From contig CM075988.1 in assembly GCA_038087875.1 (NCBI GenBank), positions 4,650,001 through 4,714,000 on the forward strand: a stretch of 64,000 nucleotides of DNA, read 5' to 3'. The notes beneath the pieces are model-generated. The model saw only the letters and a list, made by a program, of their open reading frames with translations, did no database searches and had not been told where the DNA came from. Source of the DNA: Malacoraja senta (Eukaryota). This document shows positions 5,829 through 22,880 of the stretch, piece after piece. The position numbers were made by a program, and so were the translations under genes. Positions within the stretch are counted from its first letter, which is position 1; each line of letters begins with the position of its first letter.

Positions 5829-6095
5829 TGATGAATGGTTCACCCAAGGGCGAATGAAATTATTTTGGGGTGAATTAAACTAGAGGGGTGAATGAAGGAA
5901 AATAGTAAGATTAAACGAGAACTTATGAGGAGTTACGATGAGGGATTACGTGAAGATCCCGCCAGCCCGCATGCGCGTCAATCTTCAAAGCAGCGGTGTG
6001 GAATCACAGATAACAGTTGTTGAACTGAATATAGGAAGATACGAGAAACTAGAACTACCAGCTGACCTTCATGAGAGAAGGTTGGGAGCGGTGGG

Positions 6096-6208
6096 CACGT
6101 AATCCCTCATCGTAACTCCTCATAAAATAAAGATCAAACTTCAAACTGGTAAGTTCTCGTTCACTCATACTATTTTACTTCGGAGTCACGTGAGTGACTA
6201 TGTGAAGA
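6096..6208. other. Internal complementary region (ICR) of DIRS A
   Basis: Reverse complement of the left terminus joined through CTATTTTACTTC to the reverse complement of the right terminus. Confidence 0.88.
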
Positions 6209-6339
6209 TTTCAAAGCTCTGTGAATTCATGCCGTGGACACGAGTCCATGCATCACACACTGCATAAGTTGACCAAGGATGAGTGAAAATAATAATGCAT
6301 TCAGACATGATATAGATTTCAAACATGCTGATGCTTGTT

Positions 6340-7318
6340 CTTTTTTTGTTTTTTTTAATATTTTATTTATAAGAAGTAATGTACATTACAGTGATATAAG
6401 CCAAAAATAACATAATACATTTCCTGTACCACTTCTTGTTTTAAACTTTAAAAAGAAGAAAAATAGAGAGAGTTAGATAAGATAGTAAGTGCGTGAAAGA
6501 GTGATCAGGAGAAACCCGTAGTAAACCACGGGAAAGAGTTAAAAAGAAAACCAAAGAAAAAGAAAGAGAAAAATAGAGAACAGAAGATATAAGAAAGTAA
6601 ATTAAGATAAAAGGGATGTACCTACTTCGTATCTTTACACACCCCTCACCAGGTCCTGAAACCATTTATTTTCAAAGTTATGTTGCACCCTATACTTGTA
6701 ATAAGTCGATAAATGGAGACCAAATCCTTTGGAAATGGTCTGATTTGCCTGCTAGGAGGAATCTCATGTCTTCCAGGTGTAACATTTCGGACATATTTGA
6801 AATCCACATTTTTATTGTTGGTGTGGGAGCGTTTTTCCAGAATTTAAGTATGTTTTTTTGCCGTTATTAATCCGTAATTAAGGAAGCTCTTTTGGAACGA
6901 AGTCAGCTCAAAGCTGGCTTCCATTGTTCCAAAAATAATCAATTCTGCGTTCGGTTTCAGTTTTATTTTAAATAATTTTGTAAACATTTCAAAGATTTAA
7001 TTCCCAAATTTTTGGATTTTTATACAAAAAACAAAGGAATGTGCTATAGTTACTTCTTGGGATAGACGTTTATCACAGATGGGGGAGACATTTGGATAAA
7101 ATGTACTTATTTTAGTTTTTGAGTAATGTAGTCTATGTAAAGTTTTAAATTGGATTAGAGTATGTCTTACATTGATCGAGCATTTGTGCACATATAGCAA
7201 GTGTTTATCCCAACTCTCTTTCGAGATTTTTATAGCTAGTTCTTGTTCCCAATCTCTTCTAATTCTATCGGATGATGGTATTTCTATATTTAGGATGATA
7301 TTCCGCCTTTATATTCAT
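6340..7318 (-). mobile_element. 5'-truncated L1/Tx1-clade LINE inserted in DIRS A
   Basis: 14-bp TSD TGCTGATGCTTGTT (6326-6339 and 7319-7332); poly(T) and TTTATT on plus; ORF2 C-terminal peptide LIQFKTLHRLHYSK..YPNVSPICDK. Confidence 0.9.
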
Positions 7319-7384
7319 TGCTGATGCTTGTTAATGAGCAAATGAACTTAAATTGGAATTGGCAAATACCCCCGCCCGGTCTGG

Positions 7385-8280
7385 CAATGGGTTAGTTATA
7401 AAACGTTTTTAAAGTTCGTTCGTTTGACCATCCTGCAGTCGCTAGGATATGGTCGAGTGGAACCTCCATAACCCTTGCTGCTGAAGTTGTTGAAGTTAGT
7501 GAGATTTGAAAACATCAGTATCCACTCCTGCACAAGCCAGAACCCGTTTTAACCACCTGGAGATGGTCTGTACTATTACCTTCTTATGAAGTTTATTGTA
7601 ACTAACAAACCTTGCTAGTTCAGAGCCTCTAAGGCTCTTGGTGACCTTAACGTACTGTTGTAGATAAATGACCACACACAACCGAAGGTCCATGGGGTAT
7701 GCCATGGAAACTAGTCTGAGACCGAACGCCCCTAGTCTACTCTGCTTGACTAAGTCATAAACATAAAACGTTATAATATTTGCAGATGTAACCATCCTGT
7801 CCAGTCGCAGCTCATGCAACGACTGGACCCGTTGCGTTGAAACCTGCGCCATGAGCATAACCACTTGTAAGTGAGTTTGACCAAGGACACAGATGTACCT
7901 AGAGCCCACCGGCGAAGCAGCGTGAGCACCACGTTAACATCCCATATCACCGAGGGGAATATGAGTTGAAGATACCCTTCATAAACCTGGATATCAGAGG
8001 ATGACCCGACAGAGTGGTGTCTCGATCCCAGCAACAAGTATCACGACAAGGCACTTCTGGCACCATTCATGGCACTATAACTCAATCCGTCATCAAAATA
8101 TAGTTTTGAGAGGAATTCCAACCCATCTGTTATACATGCCGTCACATACGATATTTAGGACTGTAACAGACCACTTCCTATATCTTGATATAGGAGATGT
8201 ACTGTTTCTTGGTACTATCTCTCCAGGCCGCAGTGCTCATGTCCACCGTATGATCTGACAGTCCGAGCCCCAGAAAAGGT
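7385..8280 (-). pseudogene. Tyrosine recombinase of DIRS A (frameshifted)
   Basis: AQVSTQRVQSLHEL, TISRWLKRVLACAGVDTDVFKSH and a downstream GWS..F..FY motif. Confidence 0.85.
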
Positions 8281-8284
8281 CTTC

Positions 8285-9343
8285 TCAGAGTCTGCAAACC
8301 AACAAATTGATTTGATCATGCAGTGGATGGTCCTCCCCAGTCACGGGCTGAACAAACAGATTTCTGCGTTTGGGAATGGCCATACAAGGCTCTGATATTA
8401 TTCCTAGCATCAGTGGGAACCATGGCTGCATAGGCCAGTCAGGCATTACCAACATGCCTAACGCGGGGTCTTGCTGAATTTTTGCAAGTACCGACTGATG
8501 AGGCAAAATGGAGGGGAATGCCTAAAAGAAAATTCCTCCCCAGTGTAGCGAGAATGCATCCATCGCCACTGCCCCTGGGTCTGGCTCCCATGCTGTCCGG
8601 TGTTCCTTACCGAGCAACAATGTCGTTCACACGTTATGATCGAACATCCATTCTGTGTCGTCATTAAATTTCCGTGACCTGGTGTCCGCCACCATGTTAA
8701 ACCTACCTGGTAAGTAGGTAGCTGAAACCCAAATGTTTCTTGCAATGTACCAGTGCCAAATAAGGTTAGCCAGTTTATCCTAAGATACTGACTTGATCCC
8801 ACCCATGTGATTAATATATGCCACCGCTGTAGTGTGTCAATCTGTAGTTGAACATGCAGATGATGCATATTCCCACCATAAGCCTTCAACCCATAGAGTG
8901 CTCCCAGCACCTCTAAATAGTTGATACCATGTAATGGAAAGCTTGATGACTCATGCACATTCCATCTGCCACCCTATTTAAAGATGGTATTGGTAGCATC
9001 CCAACCTTGAGCACTAGCATCAGATTGTAATTTAATTGAAGATTTGCTGACCAAAATGTTACTGGAGCAATGCCGAATATTGGTCATCCAACACTGGAAC
9101 TCAGAAATGGCTTCATCTGTCAATTGCATAGGTCTGATTAAAGAAACCTGCATGGTATATTAGTGCTTGCTCCTTTGCTCATTCTGATAATGCAAAGGCC
9201 CAAACTGTGCAGCTGGAAAGCAGCCACTAATTTGCCAATTACACTGGCTAATTGTCGAATAAAAGGTTGCTCCATAACAACGAGATTGTTACAGGCTTCT
9301 ATTAATTCTAATCTCTTGCCCCAAGGCAGAGTCACAGACATGT
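8285..9343 (-). pseudogene. RT C-terminus, RNase H and Dam-like methyltransferase domain of DIRS A (disrupted)
   Basis: IRQLASVIGKLVAAF; SDAS..GW; INYLEVLGALYGLKAY; DAFSLHW..PPFCLI; MPDWPMQPWFPLM. Confidence 0.85.
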
Positions 9344-12300
9344 AAAATAGTAAGATTAAACGAGAACTTACCAGTTTGAAGTTTGATCTTTATTTTATGA
9401 TGAGTTACGATGAGCGATTGCGTGAAGAAGGCCGTCAGCACGCATGCACGTCAACTTTCAAAGCAGCGGTGTAAAATCACAGATAACAGTTGTTGAACTG
9501 AATATAGTAAGATTTGAGAGAACTAGAACTACCAAGTGATCTTTATGATACGAGGGTTGGAAGCGGAGGGCACGTAATCGCTCATCGTAACTCCTCAGAA
9601 AATAAAGATCAAACTTCAAACTGGTAAGCTCGTATAATCTTACTATTTTATTTCGGAGTCACGTGAGTGCTACGTGAAGATTTCAAAGCTCTGTGATTTC
9701 ATGCTGTGAAAACTAGTCCACACAAGCACAACTGCATCAGTTAACCACAGATAAGGGAAACATTCATAATGCATACAGACATGACATAGATTTGAAACAT
9801 GCTGATGCTTTTTAATGAACAAATAATAATAATAGTAATTCCTCTCATCCGGGAGGAAACTATAAAATAGAACCTAAAATAGAGTTGGCAAATACCCCCG
9901 GTCTGGCAATGGGTTATTATAAAATGTTTGGAAGCTCGTTCATTAGACCATCCTGCAGCCGCTAGGATGTGGTCCAGCGGAACGTACATAACCCTTGCTG
10001 CTGATGTTGTAGCAGCCCTGGTGAAGTGAGATTAGAAAATATTAGTATCTACTCCTGCATAAGCCAAAACCCCGTTTTAACCACCTGGAGATGGTCTGAA
10101 CTGATACCCTCTTATGAGGTTTGTTGTAACTAACAAAAATTGCTAGTATCAGAGCCTCTAACGCTCTAGGTGACCTTGACGTATTGTTGTAAATGTGTGA
10201 CCACCCATAACCGAAGGCCCATGGGGTATGCCATGAAACTAGTTTGAGACCTGATGCCACTGGGCTGCTCTGCTTAACTAAATCATAAACATAAAATATT
10301 ATAATATTTGCAGATGTAACCATCCTGTCCAGTCGCAATTTATGTAGTGACTGGACCCGTTGCGCTGATATCAGCGCCGTGAGGATAACTACCTTATGAG
10401 AGCCGGCCCAAAGATAAGGATGTAGCTGGAGCCCCCTGGTGAAGTAGTGTTAACACAATGTCAATATCCCATACTTCCATGTACTTGGGCCTCGGAGAAC
10501 TTGTGTTAAAGATATCCTTTATAAACTGGATATCAGAGGGTGAGACAAGACAGAGTGGATCCCGCTCGCTGCAGCAAATATGATGAGAAGGCACTTTTGG
10601 CACAGTTAATGGCACTATAACTTAATTAATTGTCAAAGACCCATTTAAAAATGAACGGCAAGACGTCAGTTGTCCGTGCCGAATTATATGCAACATTAGC
10701 ATTTAAACAAAATGCTTCCCATCTCCTGGAGAGGAAATGTACTGCTTTTTTGGTGCTATCCCTGCACTCTGCAGTGAGCACATACATGGATCGGTCTGAC
10801 AACCCAAGCCGCAGGAACAGTCGTCTCAGAGTCTGCAAGTCAATGAATTGATTTTACCATGCAGAGGCTGGTTTCCCGAGTCACAGGCTGAACCAGCAAA
10901 GTTTTATGTTTAGAATAACCATATAAGGTTCTATTATTATTCCCAGCATTAGCGGGAACAATGGCTGCATAGGCCAGTCAGACAATATGAAAACCCTGAA
11001 GCGGGATCTTGCTGAATTTATTGCAAGACCCGACTGATAGGCAAAATGGAGGAAAGACATAAAAGAACATTCCTCCCCCGTGTAGCGAGAATGTATCTCT
11101 CGCCACAGTTATGCCACATATTTTTGTAACCGGTGAATGAGCCTGGATGCAAACATATCGATATTCGGTGTTCCATCAAGCCATAATGTCATAAAATACT
11201 TTGTGATCCAACATCCATTCTGTGTTGTCATTAATTTTACGTGATGATACACCAGCGCCAAATGAGGTTAGGTAAATTATCACAGGATACTTTGTATTGA
11301 GTGCACCCATGTGACTAACATATGCCACCACCACAGTGTATCAACTTGGAATTGAGCATGCAGATTATGCATATTCGCACAATAACCCTTTAACCCATAG
11401 AATGTACCTTGAGTCTATAGGTAGTTGATACCAATAACTGAAGAACTGGCAACATGCAAATCCCATCCGCCTCCATGACTAGAGATGGCATTTGTAATTT
11501 TCCATCTTTGAGCACTCGCATCAGTTTGTAATATAACTGAACATTTACTGACCAAAACTACTGGAGCAATGCTGAATACTGTTCGTCCACCATTGTGACT
11601 TTGGTAGCTTCAGCTGGTAATAGCATAGGTCTGTTAACAATGACCTACATGGCACTTGAGAGGTTATTACTTTGGACGTTGTAAGTTCTGATAATGCAAA
11701 GGCCCAACTTGCACATTTGAAACACAGCTACTATATTGCCAATTACACTTGATGAATAGAAAACTGCTTCATAACAACAAGGTTGTTACAGGCTTCTATT
11801 AATTCCAATCTCTTGCCCCAGGGCGGAGACACAGACAAATTAATAGTTAAAGGTAAATCCCAATCATCAATAACTCTAGTTGATATCAACTTAAATTTAA
11901 CTGGATGGATGAGGAACCTCAATTTCTCAAATATAGTTTGCGGCTGAAACAGTTGATTTTTAGCAAAATACAGCATTTAGAATATCATCCAGTTAAGCCA
12001 TAACAAGTGTATTTGAGCTCTGAGCAGTCCAAGCAACGGTTTTAGTAATTTGGTAAATAACCTGGGAGCTGAAGTTAGCCCATTTTGCAACGCTTTAACT
12101 GTTATCATTCCCCCATCCAGATAAATTTCAAATGTCTCCAGTGATCCCTGTGAATGGGACCTGAATAGTATATATCTTTGAGATCAATGCATGCCATAAA
12201 ATCTTATGGAAATCAGTTGTTAGACAGTAACGAAGTTTCCTATTCTGAAAAGTCTATATTGCAGATGCGAGTTAAATCAAGGATGAACCGACATCCTCCA

Positions 12301-14113
12301 TCTTTCACAATGAACAGGCCACGCCTGCCATAATTCCGTGCCTGCCTCGAACGACAACTCTGGCGAGATTCCCGAGTCTGTCTTGAAAAGGCAATCCTGG
12401 CCATAATACTGAGCCTGCCTCGAAAGACAACTCTAGCCATAATTCTGAGCCTGCCTCGAAAGACAACTCTGGCATTATTTCCGAGCCTGTCTTGAAAGGC
12501 AATCCTGGCCATAATACTGGGCCTGCCTCGAAAGACAACTCAGGCCATAATTTTGAGCCTGCCTCGAAAGACAACTCTGGCCATATTTCCGAGCTTGTCT
12601 CGGAAGGCAATCCTGGCCATAATACTGAGCCTGCCTCGATAGACAACTCTGGCCCCAATTCCAAGCCATGCTTGGAACACTTGTATGCTGTGCAGTATAA
12701 ACTAATCACATGTTATCATTTTACTTTATAAACGGATCTGAATCTCATGTTATCATTGTCATTTGTACAAAAAACAAGTGTAAATATTACCAACTTGTAA
12801 ATGGTCCACATACCCCATGTTTCGGATGAACCAGACCCACCTACCTCCATGGTTATCGGTGGTCTTATGGTAAGCCCAAAGGCCCCTGATGCAGTTTCTA
12901 TTTCCGTACTTGATTGGAGAATAAGACTGGTAGGGTGCGTGGATTCCATATTTTTCCTGAGACCGGCTTGGGCCTTGGCCTGAAAGACCTCTGCCCAGCT
13001 TTCAAGCTGCCACCAGCTTCAGTGAACCGCTTACTGCTGATGAAGGCGAGGGGTGTGTCGTCGCCAAAACGATGAAGCGTTGCTCGTCGACGGTACCTTG
13101 ATTAGTCCGACAGCTTTTGCTTCCTCAAACAAGTATTACCTGTTGGATAAGTCTTACCTGAAGAGAAGATTCGGCGGCTGGTTTCATTTCCTGGATTTCA
13201 TGCCCCCTCCAATGTCACCCTTGATAGCGCTGTTCACTGCCGGCACTTGTAGCGTGAGGGGAACTCTGGCCCCTTCCGGGTTTTCTGCCAACGGCTACAA
13301 ACCAACTCTTCTGGCAGCAGCACCTTCATTTGCAAGTAATCCCTTGAAGTCATATGCATGTGCTCCAGTATGTTCCACAGACATACTTTCGAATTTGAAA
13401 TCAGTTACACACTGACCATTCGCACTCCCCTCCACAGAGAGGGAGATTCATAGGCAGCCCTGAAAACAGGTGCTGTCGCAGGCCCCTGAGGATACCTGCG
13501 CTGATATGGCCCCTCCTACAGACCTATATCAGGATGGAGCATCACATTTGTGGGATAAACGACCGAGGGCGCAATCCATGCTCCATCGGGGTTAAACGTC
13601 CAAGGACGCACCCAGGAATGTCAGAGGGGAACCCTCCTGACCTGACTCGTCCGAGTCCATAGGCGTACCCGACTTATTCTTGGATTTACCCCCTTTCTGG
13701 GGAACCAACGCACTGTCAGCGACTCGGGTGGCGAACCCGACTTACTTTTGGCTTTACTCCCTTTCTGGGGAACCACAGTGGTCTGGGAGCCACTGACCGC
13801 ATTGTCAGCGACTTGAGTAGCGAACCCGACGGCCGACGGCTACCCGCGCTTCCGCAGTCCAGACAGGGATCTCCCCATGATCCATAACCAGTTTCCCCGC
13901 GGCCCGTCAGGACTTCGCCCCGAAATTATCCAGCAGGAAAAACTCTGTAAGAGATTCCTGCAAGAAAAAACAGAACCTGGAAATAAGTTCAAAACTTACC
14001 TGCAGGTTTAAACATACCGCTGGAAGGAGCGACGCACCTGCGTTAGACGTAATGACGCGCATGCGTGCTGACGGCCTTCTTCACGTAGTCACTAACGTGA
14101 CTCCAAAGTAAAA
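9344..14113 (-). mobile_element. DIRS1-like retrotransposon B (full length, decayed)
   Basis: Matched termini (GAAGAAGGCCGTCAGCACGCATGC versus GCATGCGTGCTGACGGCCTTCTTC); ICR 9571-9680; YR ~9900-10830 (AAAGWSNERA, TISRWLK); RT/RH/MT ~10830-12800; gag ~12900-13940. Confidence 0.9.
12325..12668. repeat. 36-bp minisatellite with 108-bp higher-order period inside DIRS B
   Basis: Unit CTGGCCATAATACTGAGCCTGCCTCGAAAGACAACT; every third unit is the variant ..TTTCCGAGCCTGTCTTGAAAGGCAATC; about 9 units. Confidence 0.9.
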
Positions 14114-17100
14114 TAGTAAGATTAAACGAGAACATTCCTGTTTGAAATTTGATCTTTATTTTATGAGGAGTTACGTTGGTGATTACGTGAAGAAGCCCCA
14201 CCAGCCCGCATGCGCGTCAATCTTCAAAGCAGTGGTATGAAATCACAGGTAACAGTAATTGAAGTAACATAGTAAGATCAGAAACTTGTGAACTACCAGA
14301 TGACCTTTGTGAGAGAGGGTTGGGAGTGGAGGGCACGTAATCACCAATGTAACTCCTCATAAAATAAAGATCAAACTTGAAACTGGTAAGTTCTCATTTA
14401 ATCTTACAATTTTACTTCGGAGACACGTGAGTGATTCCGTGAAGAGTTCAAAGCTCTGTGATTTCATGCCATAGATTCAAATCCCGGCGTCTCACTGCAT
14501 CGATTGACTCAGGATTAATGAATAATCAATAATGCATTACACATGACATTGATTTAAACATATTAATGGTTTACGTTAATAAAAAAAATCAATAGCAACT
14601 CCTCTATCTCAGGGGAGGCTAAAGTGGATGCAAAACAGAATGGGCAAATAGCCCCTGGTCGGCAATCGGCCCATGGTAAAAAAAAAATTGAAAATCAATT
14701 CACTTGACCATCCTGTCGCCACGAGGATATGGTCGATGGGAACGTCCATTGCCCTGGCCGCTGACGTTGATGCCGCCCTGGTGGAATGAGATGTAAAATT
14801 GTCAATGTTAATACCTGCATAAACCAGAACCTGCTTCAGCCACCTTGAAATAGTCTGAACCGACTTTTTCTTGTGTGGTTGTTTGTGGCTAATAAACAAT
14901 GCTGATTCCACACCTCTTAGGATTCTGGTGGCCTTGATATAATATAGCAAGCGTGCCCTCACACATAGACGTGAGTCCGTGGGGTATGCCGAAATATGAT
15001 CTTAAACCCTGTCACCCCTGGTCTGCTCTGCCTGTGTAGACCAGAAATGTAAAACGTAATGGCATCTGCAGCCACTTCCATCCTATCTAGCCGCAGCTTT
15101 TGCAATGTCTGCACTCGTTGTGCTGATACTAGTGTCATGACTAAGGAAGTAGCTGGCCCCTGGTGAAGTATTGTAAACAAAATCTCAATATCCTATACTG
15201 CCTATACTTGTACTGGGAGAACTTGTGTTAAAGATATCGTTTACAAACTCGATATCCAGGGTTGAAACCAGACAGAGTGGGTCTTGTGTGCTGCAGCTAA
15301 TATGATGGGAAGGCATGTTTGGCACAGTTAATGGCCCTATACTCAATTATTGTCAGAAGACCATTTAAGAATGAACTGGAACACATCAGTAATCTGTACC
15401 ATATTAAATGTAACATTAACATTAAACAAAACCGCTTCCTACCTCCTGAATAGGAAATGTACAGCTGTTTTGTTGCTATCGCTGCACTCTGCAGTGAGCA
15501 CATACATGGATTGATGTGACAACCTGAGCCGTAGGGCAGTCTATTCAGAATCTGCAAGTTAACAAATTGATTTTATCATGCAGAGGCTGGTTTCCTGAGC
15601 CACAGTTTGAACCAGCAAAGTTTTTGTTTTATAGAATAACCGTATATGTTTGTATTATTATGCCTGACGGAAGCAGGAATCATGGCTGCATAGCCAGTCA
15701 GACAGTACAAAAACTAAAGCGAGTTCTTGCTGGCTTTATTTCAAGACCCGACTGATGAGGCAAAATGAAGGAAGACATAAAAGAACATTCCTCCTTCTTG
15801 TAGTGAGAATGTATCTCTCAACACTGTTATGCCACATATTTTTGCAATCAGTGAATAAGCATGCAACCAACATTTCGATATTTGGTGTTTCATTGAACCA
15901 TACTTTCATAAATACTTTGTGATCCAACACCTATTCTGTGTTGTCATCGATCTGAACTTGATGATACACCAGTGGCAAAGGAGATTAGGTAAATTATTAC
16001 AGGATACTTTTACTTGATTGCCATGTGACTAACATATGCCACCACCGTAGTGTATCAACTTGAAGTTGAGCATGTAGATTATGTATATTCGTTCAATAGC
16101 CCTTTACCTATGGGATGCAACTAGTGTCTATAGCTAGTTGATACCAATAACTGAAGAATTGGCAACTCATCCCCGATTTGCACAGTTGAATCACAGCTAC
16201 TATATTGCCAATTACTCTTGATGAATAGAATTCAGCTTAATAACAGGTTTCTATTAACTCCAATCTCGTGCCACAAGGCGGAGTCATAGGCTAATTAATA
16301 GTTAAAGGTAAATCCCAATGACCAACGAGTCTATTTGGTAACAACTTAAAGTTAACTGGATGGATGAGCCCAATTTCTCAAATATAGTTTGAGGCTGAAA
16401 CAGGCGATTTTAACAAAATACAGCATTAGAATATCATCCAGCCAAGACAAAACAAGTGTTTTCTAACCCTGAGTCCAAACACCGATTTTACTAATTAGTT
16501 AAATAACCTGGGGAAATAGTGTATCCCATTTTGCAATGTTTTACTGTTATTAGTACAGTTATTATTGCCTTTTGATAATTTCCAATGTCTCCGATGATCC
16601 CTGTAATGGGAACTGCATAGAATGGATCTTTGAGACCCTTATGAATCCGTTGTTAGTCAGTAAAGAAGTTTCCTATTTGGAAAGTTCATATGCGAGTTAA
16701 ACAACATTCTCCATTTTTCATAATGAACAGGCCACTCCTGCCATCATTCCATGGGTGCTCCGCACGATAACTCTGGCCCGATTTCCGAGCCTGTCTTGAA
16801 AACGACAATTCAGGCCTTAATTCCAAACTTGCTTGGCATGCTAGTATTGTGCAGTTTTACATGGTTAGATGCCTCTAAGCAGATGACAATGCCTTTATCC
16901 TTTGTGTGCTGTACAAACAAGTGTAAATATTACCAACTTGTGAGTGGTCCACTTACCCATGGTTCGGAAGTGCCAGACCCACCTTGTTGAGTTGGACTGG
17001 TAGGGTGCGTGGAACCTCTGCCCAGCTGTCATGCTGCCACCAGCTTCAGTGAACCGCTTACTGCCGATGAAGGCATGGGGTGCGTTCTGAAACGATGAAC

Positions 17101-18382
17101 CTTTGCCCGCCTTTGGTCTTGATTGGTCCGACAGCTTTTGCTTCGTCCGACCAGGTTTTTGCTGTTGAATAGACCTCACCTGAATAGAAGATTCGGCGGC
17201 TGTCTCTCATATCCCCCTGATAGCGCTGATCACTGCCGGCACACATGTGCTCCAGTATGTTCCACGGACATCTTTAGAATCTGCACTATACGGCCCCCAG
17301 TGGACCTATACCAGGATGGAACATTCTGTTGGGATGGCAAACTTTGTTGTCAGGAAATGATACCTCTGACATGTGCCCTTCATCCCTTGGGGTATGCTCC
17401 ATGGCTATACCCTCAGACTCGGCGTCAGAATTACACTGATCCGTGATGGTCTCCCCCTCCAAGAGGGAGACATGTAGCAGCTCTGTCCCAGGCGCTTTTG
17501 GCGCGTGCTCTCCCGTAGGCCGGCGCTGTGACAGATTCAGCATCAGCAGTATACTGACCCATGATGGTCTCCCCTTCCAACAGGGAGACATTAAGCAGCC
17601 CTGTCCCAGGTGCTGCTAGCACAGCCTCTCCTATAGACCGGCGCTGTCACACATTAAGCAGCCCTGTCCTAGGCGCTGCTGGCACGGCCTGTCCCATAGG
17701 CCCGCGCTATTACAGATCTGGTGTCTGAGGTGACCTGACCCGGCATGGTGTCCTCAGCTCGGGGAATGCATGTCCAAATTCAATTGTGGATTGTGGAGCT
17801 TCACCTGTGAAGGGTTAAAATGACAACAGAATCCATTCAAATACATACTTATTTCCGGAGGGGAATCCTTGCATCCCGACTCGTCCGAGTTCAATAGGGC
17901 TGATCGATGTATCGGTGATGTATCATGCCTGGGGACCACTGCGAACGATAATATGTCTGTGAGCCGCTGACCGCACTGTCAGCGACTCTGACGGTGATAC
18001 CGCCTTCCTGCTTGATTTGCCCTCCCCGGGAACCACTGCAGGCTGGAAACCACTGACCGCCTTGTCAGTGACTGGGATCACGAACCCGACATCTGCCAAC
18101 TATCCTCTTCCGTGGTCAGAACCGGGGTCTCCCCACAGCCCATAGCCGGTTCACTCGCCGGAATTTGCCACAATATCTAGCAGGATACCTCTGTGAAAAG
18201 AGGTTCCTGCAAGAAATTCAAAAACCTGGTAAGTAGCACAAAACTACCTGTGGTTTTAAACTTACCGTCGGCAGGAGCGATGCCCTGCCAGTCCGGTGCT
18301 TCACCATGCGAACGACGATATGACGCGCATGCGGACTGGCGGGGCTTATTCACGGAATCACTCACGTGACTCCGAAGTAAAA
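14110..18382 (-). mobile_element. DIRS1-like retrotransposon C (full length, decayed)
   Basis: ICR 14334-14444 carries GATTCCGTGAA, matching its own right end TTCACGGAATC; YR peptide TISRWLK..FTSHSTRAASTSAA..ATGWS (14609-14962). Confidence 0.9.
17413..17715. repeat. ~118-bp tandem duplication in the gag region of DIRS C
   Basis: Repeated CAGA.TC.GC.TCAG..TGATGGTCTCCCC..GGGAGACAT..AGCAGC.CTGTCCCAGG plus a partial third copy. Confidence 0.8.
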
Positions 18383-19110
18383 TAGAGTTAATGGTAAATT
18401 CCAAATACTCAATAATTCTGGATGGTATCAATTTTGATTTAACAGGATGGATGAGAACCCCAATCTCTCAAACATGAGTTTAGTGGCTGAAACAGCTAAT
18501 TTAGCCAACTCCAGGGTTTTCCTTATGATTAGGATATCATCCAAATATGCCATAACAATATGATTTTGAGCTCGAAGTAGCCCAAGTACTGGCTTCAAAA
18601 ATTTGGTAAATAATCTGGGCTGAAGTTAACCCATTAGGCAATGCTTTAAACGGCCACAGTTGCCTCATCCAGCTAAATTTCAAATATCTCCGGTGATCCC
18701 AGCGAAAGGGTACCGAGATAGTATGCATCTTTGAGATCGATGCATGCCATATAACATCCTATGGAAACCAGTCGTTTGGCAGTAACAAAGTTTCCCATTT
18801 TGAAATGTCTATACTGCACAAAATGAGTTAAGTCGAGTCAAAATATTAGAAACAAATTGGTTCAAGACTCGACTTCTCAATTACCCCTTTTGTATATAAC
18901 TTTTGATTTTCAGCTTGTACATCCAAACCTTCCAGTTGTGAATGGACAATGGTTTGGCGTATGCTGTGTGGGTAGCAATGAATTGAATTCAATTTGGAAA
19001 CATTGTATACTGTGCAGTATCAATGAATCTGATATTATCCAATGCCTTTCATTCAAAACAAGTGTAATCTCACCAACTTGTAACTGATCCACACAACCCA
19101 TGTGTCGGAA
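18383..19110 (-). pseudogene. RT catalytic core of DIRS A
   Basis: KALPNGLTSA and HIVMAYLDDILI (YLDD, ~18527-18557) on minus. Confidence 0.85.
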
Positions 19111-19199
19111 AGAACCAGACCCACGTACCTGCATGGTTACCGGTGGTCTTACGGTAACCCCAAAGGCCCCTGTTGTGGGTTCTATTACCGTCATTGATT

Positions 19200-20251
19200 T
19201 GGAGGGTAGGACTGCTGGGGTGCGTGGATTGCACATTTTCCATGAGGGCCGGCTTGGGCCTTGACCCGTAGACCTCCGCCCAGAGAATCAGCTTTCAAGC
19301 TGCCACCAGCTTCAGTGAACCGCTTACTGCTGATGGAGGCGTAGGGGTGTTTGTCGCCGAAATGGTGAAGCTTTGCTCGTCGCTGGTACCTTGATTAGTC
19401 CGACAGCTTTGCTTCCTCATCCAGTTTTTTTTACCTGTTTGGCTAGGTCTTCTCCAAGGAGAAGATTCGGCAGCTGGACATTGCTGGCCTCGCCATCCAT
19501 AGTCTCCCCAGATAGCGCTGTTCACTGCCGGCACCTTCAGGAATGCACAATTTACAGGTGTATGTTCCTGTAATGACATGACATGAGGTCACTGATGCTT
19601 ACCAAGCTTGTAATGTGAGGGGAAACTCTGCCCCCCCCACCCCCCCCCCCCCCGGGTTTTCTGCCATAGGCTGGAAGCCAACTCTTCCTGCAGCGGCTCC
19701 TCCGTTTGCGAGGATATCGCAACACTTGATGCCATGACAGACAATTCTTGAACCTCACGCATGTACTCCAGTATGTTTCACGGACATACTTCCCAGTTTG
19801 GAGTCAGTCACACACTGACCCCCTCGCACTCCCCTCCACAGAGAGGGAGATTTGTAAGCAGCCCTGAAACAGGTGCTGCTGCAGGTCCCCGACGAGGCCT
19901 GTGCTGAAATGGCCCCGTTCCACGGACCATATCAGGGTGGAGCATAACCTCAGTGGGATGAACGCCCTGTGGACGCATCCATGCTCCACCTGGGTAAACA
20001 TCCAAGGACGTACCCATGGAGGGGAACCCTCCTGGCCTGACTTGTCCCAGTCCAGGCCCCTCGGACTCCATTCGGCTGCACAGCCTCTCGGGGCTGCCGG
20101 AGTCTGGAGTCGCTAACCGCACTGCCAGCGACTTGGGTAGCGAACCCGACCGCCGCCGGCTGCCTGCACTCCCGCGGAGCCGGGATTCCCCTGCGGTCTC
20201 CGTAGCCGGGTTTCCCCGCAGCTCGTCAGGATTTCGACCCCGGAATGACAT
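19200..20251 (-). pseudogene. gag-like ORF1 of DIRS A (disrupted)
   Basis: First ORF after the 5' terminus (MSFRGRNP...); NCAFLKVPAVNSAIW segment; position typical of DIRS ORF1. Confidence 0.65.
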
Positions 20252-21008
20252 CTAGCAGGAACTCTGTAAAAGAGCTTCCTGCAAGGAAAAAGCACAATCT
20301 GAAATTAAGTTCGAAAACTTACCTGCAGGATTTTGAAAGTGACCGCTGGAGGAGCAACGCGCCTGCCAGCCAGTCGTTACGCCATACGTTAGACGTAATG
20401 ACGCACATGCGGGCTGGTGGGCTCTTCGCGTAGTCATTCACGTGACTCCGAAGTAAAATTACTTAATTTATTCAGATATTTATAGATTTTGTTCTATACT
20501 TAAAAAAGGCATTGCCATTAAAGTGGTTAGTAAGTTCTTATTGGTTTTAATGGCAGTGGAGCTGGAAATTTGATATGTTTTTTTTCTCTCTACCTATGGT
20601 TTTCTAATTTCAAAGTAGCAGGATATTTCCCAAATTTACTGTAACATAACGTTTTAGGGAAGACCAGACGAGCTAGTGGGATCATACATTTATAAATGGC
20701 AACACTGGAGGATTGCCGTGGGCAACTGTTAAATTGTAACTTTACTTTGTGTAGCAATTTAGCTACCAAAGTTGATATTTGGTGGTATTGTGAGCTTTCG
20801 TCGGGGAGAGTTATAGAAAGTTATATTAGTTGGATACTAATATATTAAATCACATACTCTATGGTTTTTAGAGCTAGTTTTCCAAGAAACAAACTGCAGT
20901 AATCAAAGCCCGAAAGGGTAGGATGGGGCTAAGGCCCAGCGTTCAGACATTGGAATGGTTTTTCTTTATCATTCTATGATTTTCCAACTCAAGTGGTAAT
21001 TAAACTTA

Positions 21009-21151: not shown

Positions 21152-22880
21152 AATAGACAATAGACAATAGGTGCAGTAGGCCATTCGGCCCTTCGAGCCA
21201 GCACCGCCATTCAATGTGATCATGGCTGATCATCCCCAATTAGTTCCCTGTTCCTGCCTTCTCCCCATATCCCCTGACTCTGCTATTTTTAAGAGCCCTA
21301 CCTAGCTCTCTCTTAAAAGCATCCAGAGAACCTGCCTCGACCGCCCTCTGAGGCAGAGAATTCCACAGACTAACAACTCTTTGTGAGAAAATGTGTTTCC
21401 TCGTCTCCGTTCTAAATGGCTTACTCCTTATTCTTAAACTGTGGTCCCTGGTTCTGGACTCCCCCGCCATCGGGAACATGTTTCCTGCCTCTAGCATGTC
21501 CAAACCCTTAACAATCTTATATGTTTCAATGAGATTACCTCTCATCCTTCTAAACTCCAGAGTGCACAAACCCAGCTGCTCCAGTCTATCAGCAAATGAC
21601 AGTCCCACCATCCCGGAAATTGTCCCTAGAGCCATTCGCTTTCTTCACTGCCTGCTGTGCCTGCACGCTTACTTTCATAGACTGATGAATAAGGACCCCC
21701 CAGATCCCATTGTACTTCCCCTTTTCCCAACTTGACGCCATTTAGATAGTAATCTGCCTTCCTGTTTTTGCTACCAAAGTGGATAACCTCACAATTATCC
21801 GCATTAAACTTCATCTGCCATGCATCTGCCCACTCCCCCAACCTGTCCAAGTCACCCTGCATTCTCATAGCATCCTCCTCACAGTTCACACTGCCACCCA
21901 GCTTTGTGTCATCTGCAAATTTGCTAATGTTACTTTGAATCCCTTCATCCAAATCATTGATGTATATTGTAAATATCTGCAGTCCCAGCACCGGGCCTTG
22001 CGGTACCCCACTAGTCACTGCCTGCCATTCTGAAAGGAACCCGTTAATCCCTACTCTTTGTTTCCTGTCTGCCAACCAATTCTCTATCCATGTCAGCACT
22101 CTACCACCAATAACATGTGCCCTAATTTTGCCCACTACTCTCCGATGTGGGAACTTATCAAATGCTTTCTGAAAGTCCAGGTACACTACATCCACTGGCT
22201 CTCCGTTGTCCATTTTCATAGTTACATCTTCAAAAAATTCCAGAAGATTAGTCAAGCATGTTTCCTCCTTCGTAAATCCATGCTGACTCGGACCGATCCT
22301 GTTACTGCTATCCAAATGTGTGGCTATTTCCTCTTTTATAATTGACTCCAGCATCTTCCCTACCACCGATGTCAGGCTAACTGGTCTATAATTCCCTGTT
22401 TTCTCTCTCCCACCTTTTTTAAAAAGTGGGATAACATTAGCTACCCTCCAATCCACAGGAACTGACCCCGAGTCTATAGAACATTGGAAAATTATCACCA
22501 ATGCATCCACAATTTCTAGAGCCACTTCCTTAAGTACCCTGGGATGCAGACCATCAGGCCCTGGGGATTTATCAGCCTTCAGTCCCATCAGTCTATCCAA
22601 CACCATTTCCTGCCTAACGTGGATTTCATTCAGTTCCTCCATCACCTCAGATCCTCTGGCCACTACCATATCAGGAAGATTGTTTGTGTCCTCCTTAGTG
22701 AAGACAGATCCAAAATACCTGTTCAACTCATCTGCCATTTCTTTGTTCCCCTTAATAAATTCAACTTTTTCGGTCTTCAAGGGTCCAACTTTGGTCTTAA
22801 CTAATTTTTTCCTCTTCACATACCTAGAGAAGCTTTTACTATCCAGCTATATATTCTTGGCTAGCTTACCTTCGTACCTC
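21152..22880 (-). mobile_element. 5'-truncated CR1/HER1 LINE with RT domain and an internal deletion near 21625
   Basis: 397-aa ORF 21626-22819: KSPGPDGLHPRVLKE, NYRPVSLTS, YLDFQKAFDK, SGVPQG, KFADDTKLGG; (AATAGAC)n tail. Confidence 0.95.

Follow-up and report, generated by a model that had tools for sequence, protein, structure and literature searches.

How three tyrosine-recombinase (YR) retrotransposons came to be stacked at one point of the Malacoraja senta genome, and whether their joints mark a site that each insertion recreates, is the question raised by the 64,000-nucleotide stretch analysed here (the window). A preliminary description had placed two elements, B and C, head-to-tail in a gap within the RT gene of a third, A, and this anatomy was confirmed, its interpretation being partly supported. 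All parts lie on the minus strand. The 5' part of A (18383–20458) begins with the terminus TTTTACTTCGG at 20458 and comprises a left ITR (about 20399–20440, pairing with the right ITR), a decayed gag-like region and the start of RT, and is broken within the RT frame at FTINS. The 3' part (5903–9347) holds the remaining RT and putative RNase H/methyltransferase-like region, a YR remnant, the ICR (6096–6208), the right ITR (5939–5980) and the 3' end CTTACTA at 5903, where about 50 nt are deleted relative to the element's own ICR. Aligned to B, the two halves meet end to end (12263–11845 and 11837–11251, respectively). Between them lie two decayed full-length DIRS1-like copies: C (14114–18382, 4269 bp), with its left ITR at 18321–18373, a YR fragment at 14609–15001, the ICR at 14334–14446 and the right ITR at 14167–14219, and B (9348–14113, about 4766 bp), with its left ITR at 14053–14093, a 36-bp tandem repeat at 12286–12710, the ICR at 9571–9680 and the right ITR at 9413–9453. 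A 5'-truncated LINE fragment inside A (6327–7332, minus strand), with a poly-A tail and a 13-bp target duplication, is a passenger outside the DIRS mechanism; a Pfam search of this fragment gave no match, and we take it to be of L1 type from its motifs.

Element limits were set by an A^TT cut rather than by the AAAA tracts. At the A/C junction (18377–18385, crossover 18383/18382) the target-left sequence AACTCTA meets the C 5' end TTTTAC, at the C/B junction (14108–14116, crossover 14114/14113) CTTACTA meets TTTTAC head-to-tail, and at the B/A junction (9342–9350, crossover 9348/9347) the B 3' end CTTACTA meets the target-right sequence TTTTACATG. As first described, all three carry GTAAAATAG, found on the plus strand at 9342, 14108 and 18377; its complement occurs at 6170 in the ICR of A, and the window holds no further copies. 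The same core had been claimed for the ICR of C, which has one mismatch (CAATTTTAC). The C/B junction has the sequence that the ICR records as the circle junction. The proposed co-variation of termini and ICR holds in C, where GATTCCGTG is common to the 5' end and the ICR, and fails in B, where GGCCGTCAGCAC co-varies between the two ITRs and the ICR core reads CTATTTTAT. Both outer ends of A sit on AAAA, more exactly AAAAT, and the junctions have no flanking duplication, in agreement with the rebuilt empty sites.

The elements belong to a DIRS1-like family with roughly 10,000 or more copies in the genome, each extending from TTTTACTTCGG to CTTACTA. ITRs were found in A, B and C, and the ICR near the 3' end complements the start of the left ITR as well as the right ITR's end and extension; in B and C, it matches the 5' ends at 33–37 of 35–40 positions and the 3' ends at 76 of 82–84. 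RVT_1 was detected in two family copies (L410, E=4e-21; L081, E=1e-19) and, under the Pfam cut-off, in A (E=2e-4 over 18431–18625). Phage_integrase was matched in L081 (E=1.2e-10) and, again under the cut-off, in C (E=2.3e-5); family YRs match both this profile and Phage_int_SAM_4 above the cut-off and retain what we take to be the R, HxxR, W and Y motif set. A YR profile search against solved structures gave no match at E 0.1. Pfam found no RNase H/methyltransferase-like domain after RT; the L410 frame there contains TDAS, DNTT, DLFAS and YAFPPF, presumably the motifs of that region. Published DIRS1-like elements are likewise reported to have ITRs, an ICR that complements both termini, a right extension, RT and YR, no target-site duplications, and an NTT trinucleotide at both ends, most commonly ATT (PMC3266345).

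The stack might not be a product of insertion at all, and instead be a segmental duplicate, an ectopic recombination product or an assembly artefact. Reads supporting the exact locus were not obtained: the best run contained 0.43 of the locus words, four assembled runs yielded family-level contigs only, and the unsplit join 9343–18381 was present at high depth, from other copies. The elements are nevertheless separate subfamilies, as had been proposed (A–B 76.7%, A–C 69.5% and B–C 75.5% identity), B and C each have their own matched ITRs, the junctions fit the family cut to the base, and 16 other heterologous pairs share the same joint. Collapsed-repeat misassembly would be unlikely to yield three precise junctions between such divergent partners, and we regard this whole group of explanations as extremely improbable.

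If the joints are genuine, they could reflect a recombinase that recognises the 9-bp GTAAAATAG as an att site, regenerated each time so that arrays grow like gene cassettes. The three junctions here do carry that core. Across the family, insertions go into A^TT, with weak preferences in the flanking bases, and not into GTAAAATAG. A occupies position -1 in 46 of 47 unselected 5' junctions and TT begins 98 of 105 3' junctions, with ATT complete at 46/47 and 73/77, respectively. Among those 98, G never occurs at +3, and 90 have T or A at +4; further away, A is found at -8 in 52 of 105 targets. For 21 of 45 rebuilt empty sites there were spanning homologues; the closest (L059, L088, L035 and L054) pass through the join without gain or loss, and four others (L044, L056, L058 and L060) have 1-bp shifts in T runs there. 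The cut falls between A and TT with neither duplication nor loss, and A^TT is present at both ends afterwards. An insertion does recreate a target in this sense; the 9-bp core, for which an insertion preference had been predicted, was present at only one of 74 empty sites. Nor is the RT position used repeatedly: the only genome-wide match is the window itself, and a hotspot there was rejected, as 26 close relatives are unsplit there, two of which have the full core. The extra T at the split was considered as an insertion product and rejected, since the A subfamily already carries it and two of the 26 unsplit relatives read CTATTTTAC.

Head-to-tail joints are nonetheless in excess, as the preliminary description had anticipated. 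Of 62 raw matches, 35 ICR sequence variants, two non-self cases and one unclear case were removed, and L179 and L180 were counted as one duplicated locus; 16 distinct junctions were obtained among about 5,290 5' ends (0.3%), 12–25 times a flat-ATT null and 2–4 times a base-preference null. Insertions into ICRs, one of them (L120) confirmed at both ends, occur at 4–12 times the base-preference expectation, and four additional tandems have C-type 5' ends. Termini and ICRs are hence chosen above chance as had been suggested, several-fold over ordinary sites, yet account for about 0.4% of insertions. The ICR reproduces the junction perfectly, with both arms, and is taken no more often than half-sites. 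None of the 24 far ends of tandems carried a third copy, so that arrays are not extended at a single point. As a general rule the att-core model is largely refuted, and we consider it very unlikely for this locus. The stack is the rare extreme to be expected of a family with so short a target. Neither self-insertion of DIRS elements nor a trinucleotide restored on insertion is new to the literature: Dictyostelium DIRS-1 and zebrafish DIRS1 enter pre-existing copies, DIRS-1 reportedly preferring its own copies without apparent sequence preference (PMC5633606, PMC7192593, PMC5941688). The present family differs in that only termini and ICRs are enriched, and weakly, and not element bodies (two nested cases among about 136 sampled elements).

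That all tandems are pairs might also indicate that B and C were joined before integration, co-active intermediates recombining at their junctions into a heterodimer that entered the RT gene of A in one event; tandems would then derive from dimers made beforehand and not from insertion at termini in the chromosome. One sub-lineage, often paired with itself, supplies 12 of 109 ordinary copies against 10 of the 20 partners upstream and 5 of the 13 downstream in tandems, a post hoc comparison of small numbers; such assortative pairing could be a sign of dimerisation ahead of integration. However, A, B and C lie outside this sub-lineage. Tandem partners are 66–89% identical with no homodimer among them, although within one cell an intermediate should most often meet identical ones. 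Under the base-preference model, an existing 5' junction already scores about 10 times the average ATT. In the other pairs, insertion order judged by drift between ICR and terminus gave 6:5:1 in a sign test. We hold a joined precursor to be improbable here. Three separate insertions of a high-copy family at the fixed A^TT cut, likely by exchange of one strand, is the reading we favour, if by a modest degree of confidence.

The nature of the exchange is best seen where the target deviates from ATT. G or C at -1 gave 538 matches to the 5' pattern, of which about 448 are true termini, and 101 to the 3' pattern (about 54 termini and about 47 mutated ICRs), and non-T at +1 gave 722 matches to the 3' pattern (about 626 termini) and 150 to the 5' pattern (about 75 termini and about 75 ICRs); the splits and the background subtraction were estimated from 30 loci each, mostly on contig C1. 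Above this background, target mismatches at -1 occur only at the 5' junction and those at +1 only at the 3' junction, each being tolerated in about 5–6% of insertions. The reciprocal classes are absent: TTTTAC is kept in 46 of 47 5' junctions, despite a difference at +3/+4 in 80% of targets, and CTTACTA is kept (at most one mismatch) in all 74 scorable 3' ends, where every sampled target differs from it. This fixed crossover with strictly one-sided mismatch segregation is new. The published DIRS model has a 3-bp homology block and a double-stranded circle (PMC3266345), whereas here the cut is fixed within the block and mismatches on either side of it are tolerated at one junction each.

On that published model (PMC3266345, PMC7192593), a double-stranded circle would undergo two exchanges around ATT, the heteroduplex would always be repaired one way, and the stack would be ordinary secondary insertion. 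Its one-sidedness could stem from mismatch repair, or from a mark on one strand such as the putative methyltransferase-like domain of the element might set. The junction data are compatible with two exchanges followed by strongly one-sided repair, and do not distinguish the exchanged strand or a single- from a double-stranded substrate; the preference for A at -8 also resembles the weak second arm of a two-armed site. However, the repair would have to be nearly completely directional at both -1 and +1, and targets have no homology to the element over -7 to -2, which, judging from the work on phage integration at dif, normally bars a second exchange (PMC4246890). We see two exchanges as rather unlikely.

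Homogeneous junctions at a three-base consensus, the mark of a single cleavage, are what the genomic signature of this family displays. Since the mismatch segregation matches the signature from which a single exchange was argued for integron G^WT insertions (bioRxiv 2022.09.11.507474), we infer one strand exchange resolved by replication, a step to which we give about an even chance. The likeness to IntI1 at secondary G^WT sites includes a consensus over -1 to +2, a cut at -1/+1, a very wide target range and the use of homogeneous junctions as the sign of one cleavage (bioRxiv 2022.09.11.507474). CTXphi and VGJphi at dif likewise use one XerCD strand-exchange pair with short homology beside the cut, and replication resolves the exchange and regenerates the target, so that tandems are possible; they differ in using host recombinases at one 28-bp chromosomal site (PMC4246890, PMC3442271), whereas the DIRS family has its own YR and millions of usable sites. 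Unlike the integron, it has an animal host, an RT-derived substrate, no dedicated attI platform building multi-unit arrays (about 0.3% tandems, no trimers among 24 far ends, the RT site used once) and no demonstrated excision, and its stacks are the exception. The family YR shares the N-terminal Phage_int_SAM_4 domain that we associate with integron integrases.

For the stack, one-strand exchange would imply the following course. A was probably resident first; the family tyrosine recombinase would have exchanged a single strand of one copy at the A^TTTTAC site in the RT gene of A, replication or repair completing the insertion, and a second copy would then have entered one of the two new junctions. 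A locus with both events would be expected about once in the genome. The strand exchanged may be that of the antisense cDNA, with cleavage at AA^T. The closed junction can fold on the ICR as a long duplex, which follows from complementarity alone and is not independent support. By analogy with integron attC and CTXphi attP, this pairing might form a folded site. DIRS-1 cDNA is described as single-stranded, antisense and ICR-dependent, and as able to feed new integrations (PMC7192593); the CTXphi substrate is a folded single strand and that of VGJphi double-stranded (PMC4246890, PMC3442271). Only tentatively, then, do we suggest that DIRS1-like integration proceeds as in integron cassettes and CTXphi, with ICR-folded single-stranded antisense cDNA, exchange at AA^T and completion by replication; a double-stranded circle with one exchange, as for VGJphi, would fit equally. 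Our search, which covered neither the Goodwin and Poulter reviews nor supplements, listed only apparently unrelated papers and no prior integron-like or one-strand proposal for DIRS, which does not establish its absence from print.

The stack itself is of little importance, being a rare by-product of a family for which nearly any A^TT serves as a target. One-strand exchange, if true, would explain both the single-stranded DIRS cDNA and the failed circle-junction PCR, and would place a eukaryotic retrotransposon alongside integrons and CTXphi in its chemistry. On the tentative folded-cDNA reading, the ICR would make up one half of the recombination site instead of serving only as a template for repair, and some 10,000 traces of integron-type chemistry would lie in an animal genome, one sub-lineage favouring its own junctions. 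The specificity of DIRS recombinases has, according to the DIRS papers cited here, never been examined by experiment; this large family fixes the cut to the base, together with the tolerated mismatches and side preferences, and so provides substrates for a direct assay.

Self-BLAST of the window recovered three minus-strand elements, A, B and C, with GTAAAATAG found at 9342, 14108 and 18377; the complement of this sequence lies at 6170. In end-to-end alignment on B, element A falls into a 5' part (18383-20458, minus strand) and a 3' part (5903-9347, minus strand), the break lying within its RT frame at FTINS and the order in element sense being A5'-C-B-A3'. The three-element head-to-tail stack splitting the RT gene of A, as proposed in the preliminary description, is thus real. 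Each element has its own inverted terminal repeat (ITR) pair and an internal complementary region (ICR) approximately 300 bp from its 3' end, and pairwise identities are 76.7% (A-B), 69.5% (A-C) and 75.5% (B-C), values that exclude a local duplication of B and C, in line with the preliminary description. The elements are DIRS1-like; all three are decayed (nearest sampled relatives 92–95% identical), and RVT_1, Phage_integrase and Phage_int_SAM_4 domains were found in more intact family copies. The 3' terminus of A (5903-5952) lacks approximately 50 nt found in its own ICR, a deletion that joins two short similar words, and B contains a 36-bp tandem repeat of around 10 units (12286-12710) with open frames kept. 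A 5'-truncated LINE of approximately 1 kb, presumably L1-type, is inserted in A (6327-7332, minus strand); it has a poly-A tail and is flanked by a 13-bp target duplication. Just beyond the 5' end of A lies a LINE RT remnant with a 406-aa frame, which we take to be CR1/L2-type (21240-22846, minus strand).

Across the 1.94-Gb genome, a 34-base junction/ICR pattern matched exactly at 8,995 positions, with no head-to-tail case in the first 30, and a 20-base 3'-terminal word matched 19,526 times. Each copy carries this word in its ICR and again at its terminus, so the exact-match count corresponds to approximately 9,800 copies, with a higher total. For target analysis, 60 ICR-anchored and 40 5'-anchored elements were fetched; in sense orientation, family elements start with TTTTACTTCGG and end with CTTACTA. 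With ^ as the crossover, -1 to its left and +1 to its right, A precedes 46 of 47 unselected 5' junctions and TT continues 98 of 105 3' junctions, where G is absent at +3 (0/98), T or A occupies +4 (90/98) and A is favoured at -8 (52/105). The closest of the rebuilt empty sites (21/45 testable) restore known repeats without gain or loss, and at a few the join is shifted by 1 bp within a T run. Only one of 74 paired sites contained the full core CTA^TTTTAC, the 9-bp sequence previously put forward as the regenerated target. Nor is the RT position of A used repeatedly: it is unsplit in 26 close relatives, most reading CTA^TTTCAC and two CTA^TTTTAC, and the only element 5' end there genome-wide is the window's own. 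The 9-base match is therefore a coincidence of the RT sequence of A, a somewhat favoured site and not a required core. A one-base RT frameshift at the split site is common to most close relatives of A (L305-L333), so this subfamily probably did not produce the RT it spread with.

The frequency of self-targeting was estimated from one 5'-end variant with 5,329 genome matches, 62 of them preceded by CTTACT; on inspection these comprised 35 ICR variants, 17 head-to-tail cases (16 distinct), seven ICR-insertion-like loci (both ends confirmed at one, another not clean), two non-self ends and one unclear case. The resulting rates are around 0.3% head-to-tail and 0.1% into ICRs, and the unselected sample (one tandem in 105 3' flanks, none in 105 5' flanks) is consistent with the former. 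Assuming approximately 8.2e7 ATT sites and 10,000–20,000 copies, the 16 tandems compare with 0.6–1.3 expected under a flat null and 3.9–7.7 under a base-preference null, whose matrix, derived from this very family, is overfitted to some degree; ICR insertions stand at 4–12 times expectation. Element bodies were not enriched as targets (two nested among some 136 elements vs 1.2–1.8% expected). The picture of arrays growing by att-like cassette stacking was much overstated. No third copy was seen at 24 visible far ends of tandems, which excludes runaway stacking and leaves room for a mild excess. Of the 17 pairs, 15 could be aligned, and in these the partners shared no more than 89% identity. 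By hand arithmetic (10,000–15,000 x 0.3% x 1.5%), approximately 0.5–0.7 loci like the window stack are expected per genome, so it needs no special mechanism and is ordinary for this family. A sub-lineage carrying the 3'-end marker AAATACAGATC, to which A, B and C do not belong, made up 10/20 upstream and 5/13 downstream tandem partners vs 12/109 ordinary copies and, in a post hoc comparison, often paired with itself (tandem loci L091-L181, L444-L447); this leaves room for pre-integration dimers or for greater junction specificity of that lineage's recombinase.

Mismatched target bases were followed with four symmetric genome-wide patterns, 30 matches being sampled from each. For G or C at -1, the 5' side had 538 matches (25/30 true 5' ends) against 101 for the 3' side (16/30 termini, 14/30 mutated ICRs as background); for non-T at +1, the 3' side had 722 (26/30 termini) against 150 for the 5' side (15/30 termini, equalling the ICR background). 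The estimated termini are 448 vs 54 for -1 (5' vs 3' side) and 626 vs 75 for +1 (3' vs 5' side). Two single mismatch cases were confirmed by empty homologues: A^AT at L054 and G^TT at L077, the latter with weaker homologues. From established tyrosine-recombinase chemistry, two exchanges with staggered overlap and replicative segregation would produce two junction classes in similar numbers, an argument likewise used for integron insertions (in passages of bioRxiv 2022.09.11.507474). The second class was absent on both sides among 47 5' junctions and 74 scorable 3' ends: TTTTAC was kept at 46 of the former though +3/+4 differs in 80% of targets, and CTTACTA, allowing one mismatch, at all 74 of the latter though all sampled targets differ. 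Twelve further 3' ends were unscorable by script, three still showing CTTACT. Two exchanges with biased repair are a possible account of these junctions; read most simply, the junctions point to a single strand exchange that replication or repair then completes.

One element (L191/L237, contig C1, ~66,079,200-66,079,500) has A at +1 in both ICR and 3' junction, which looks as though a variant junction had selected a target that matched it, or as though conversion had occurred between the two. Near C1 112,129,500 there is a second candidate. Only two non-self 5' ends, L107 and L110 (also L441, L442), are preceded by CTTACTA, and both have an inverted AATAGTAA just upstream (0/105 ordinary 5' ends); at L107 the target word is duplicated, resembling a templated repair insertion.

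In the one-strand reading, the recombinase would exchange a single strand at A^TT, and replication or repair would complete the insertion. By complementarity, pairing between the ICR and a closed antisense junction can extend across the cut, which may provide a folded site; a double-stranded substrate is a possible alternative to the folded single strand. DIRS-1 cDNA is described in parts of PMC7192593 as single-stranded, antisense and ICR-dependent, giving no junction PCR product and usable for new integrations. A similar geometry is found in integron insertions at G^WT, where the cut falls between -1 and +1 (bioRxiv 2022.09.11.507474), and in CTXphi and VGJphi, which integrate through one exchange and subsequent replication (PMC4246890). 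Passages in earlier work already cover the DIRS trinucleotide rule, missing target site duplication and regenerated ends (PMC3266345, PMC7192593), self-insertion in Dictyostelium and zebrafish (PMC5633606, PMC5941688) and TTT ends in Xenopus (PMC9210276). No relevant paper on a one-strand or integron-like DIRS model was found in a literature search that lay outside the main subscription reviews. The base-exact, one-sided crossover is the part that merits specialist attention, as it offers a defined assay for a step in the DIRS cycle so far untested.
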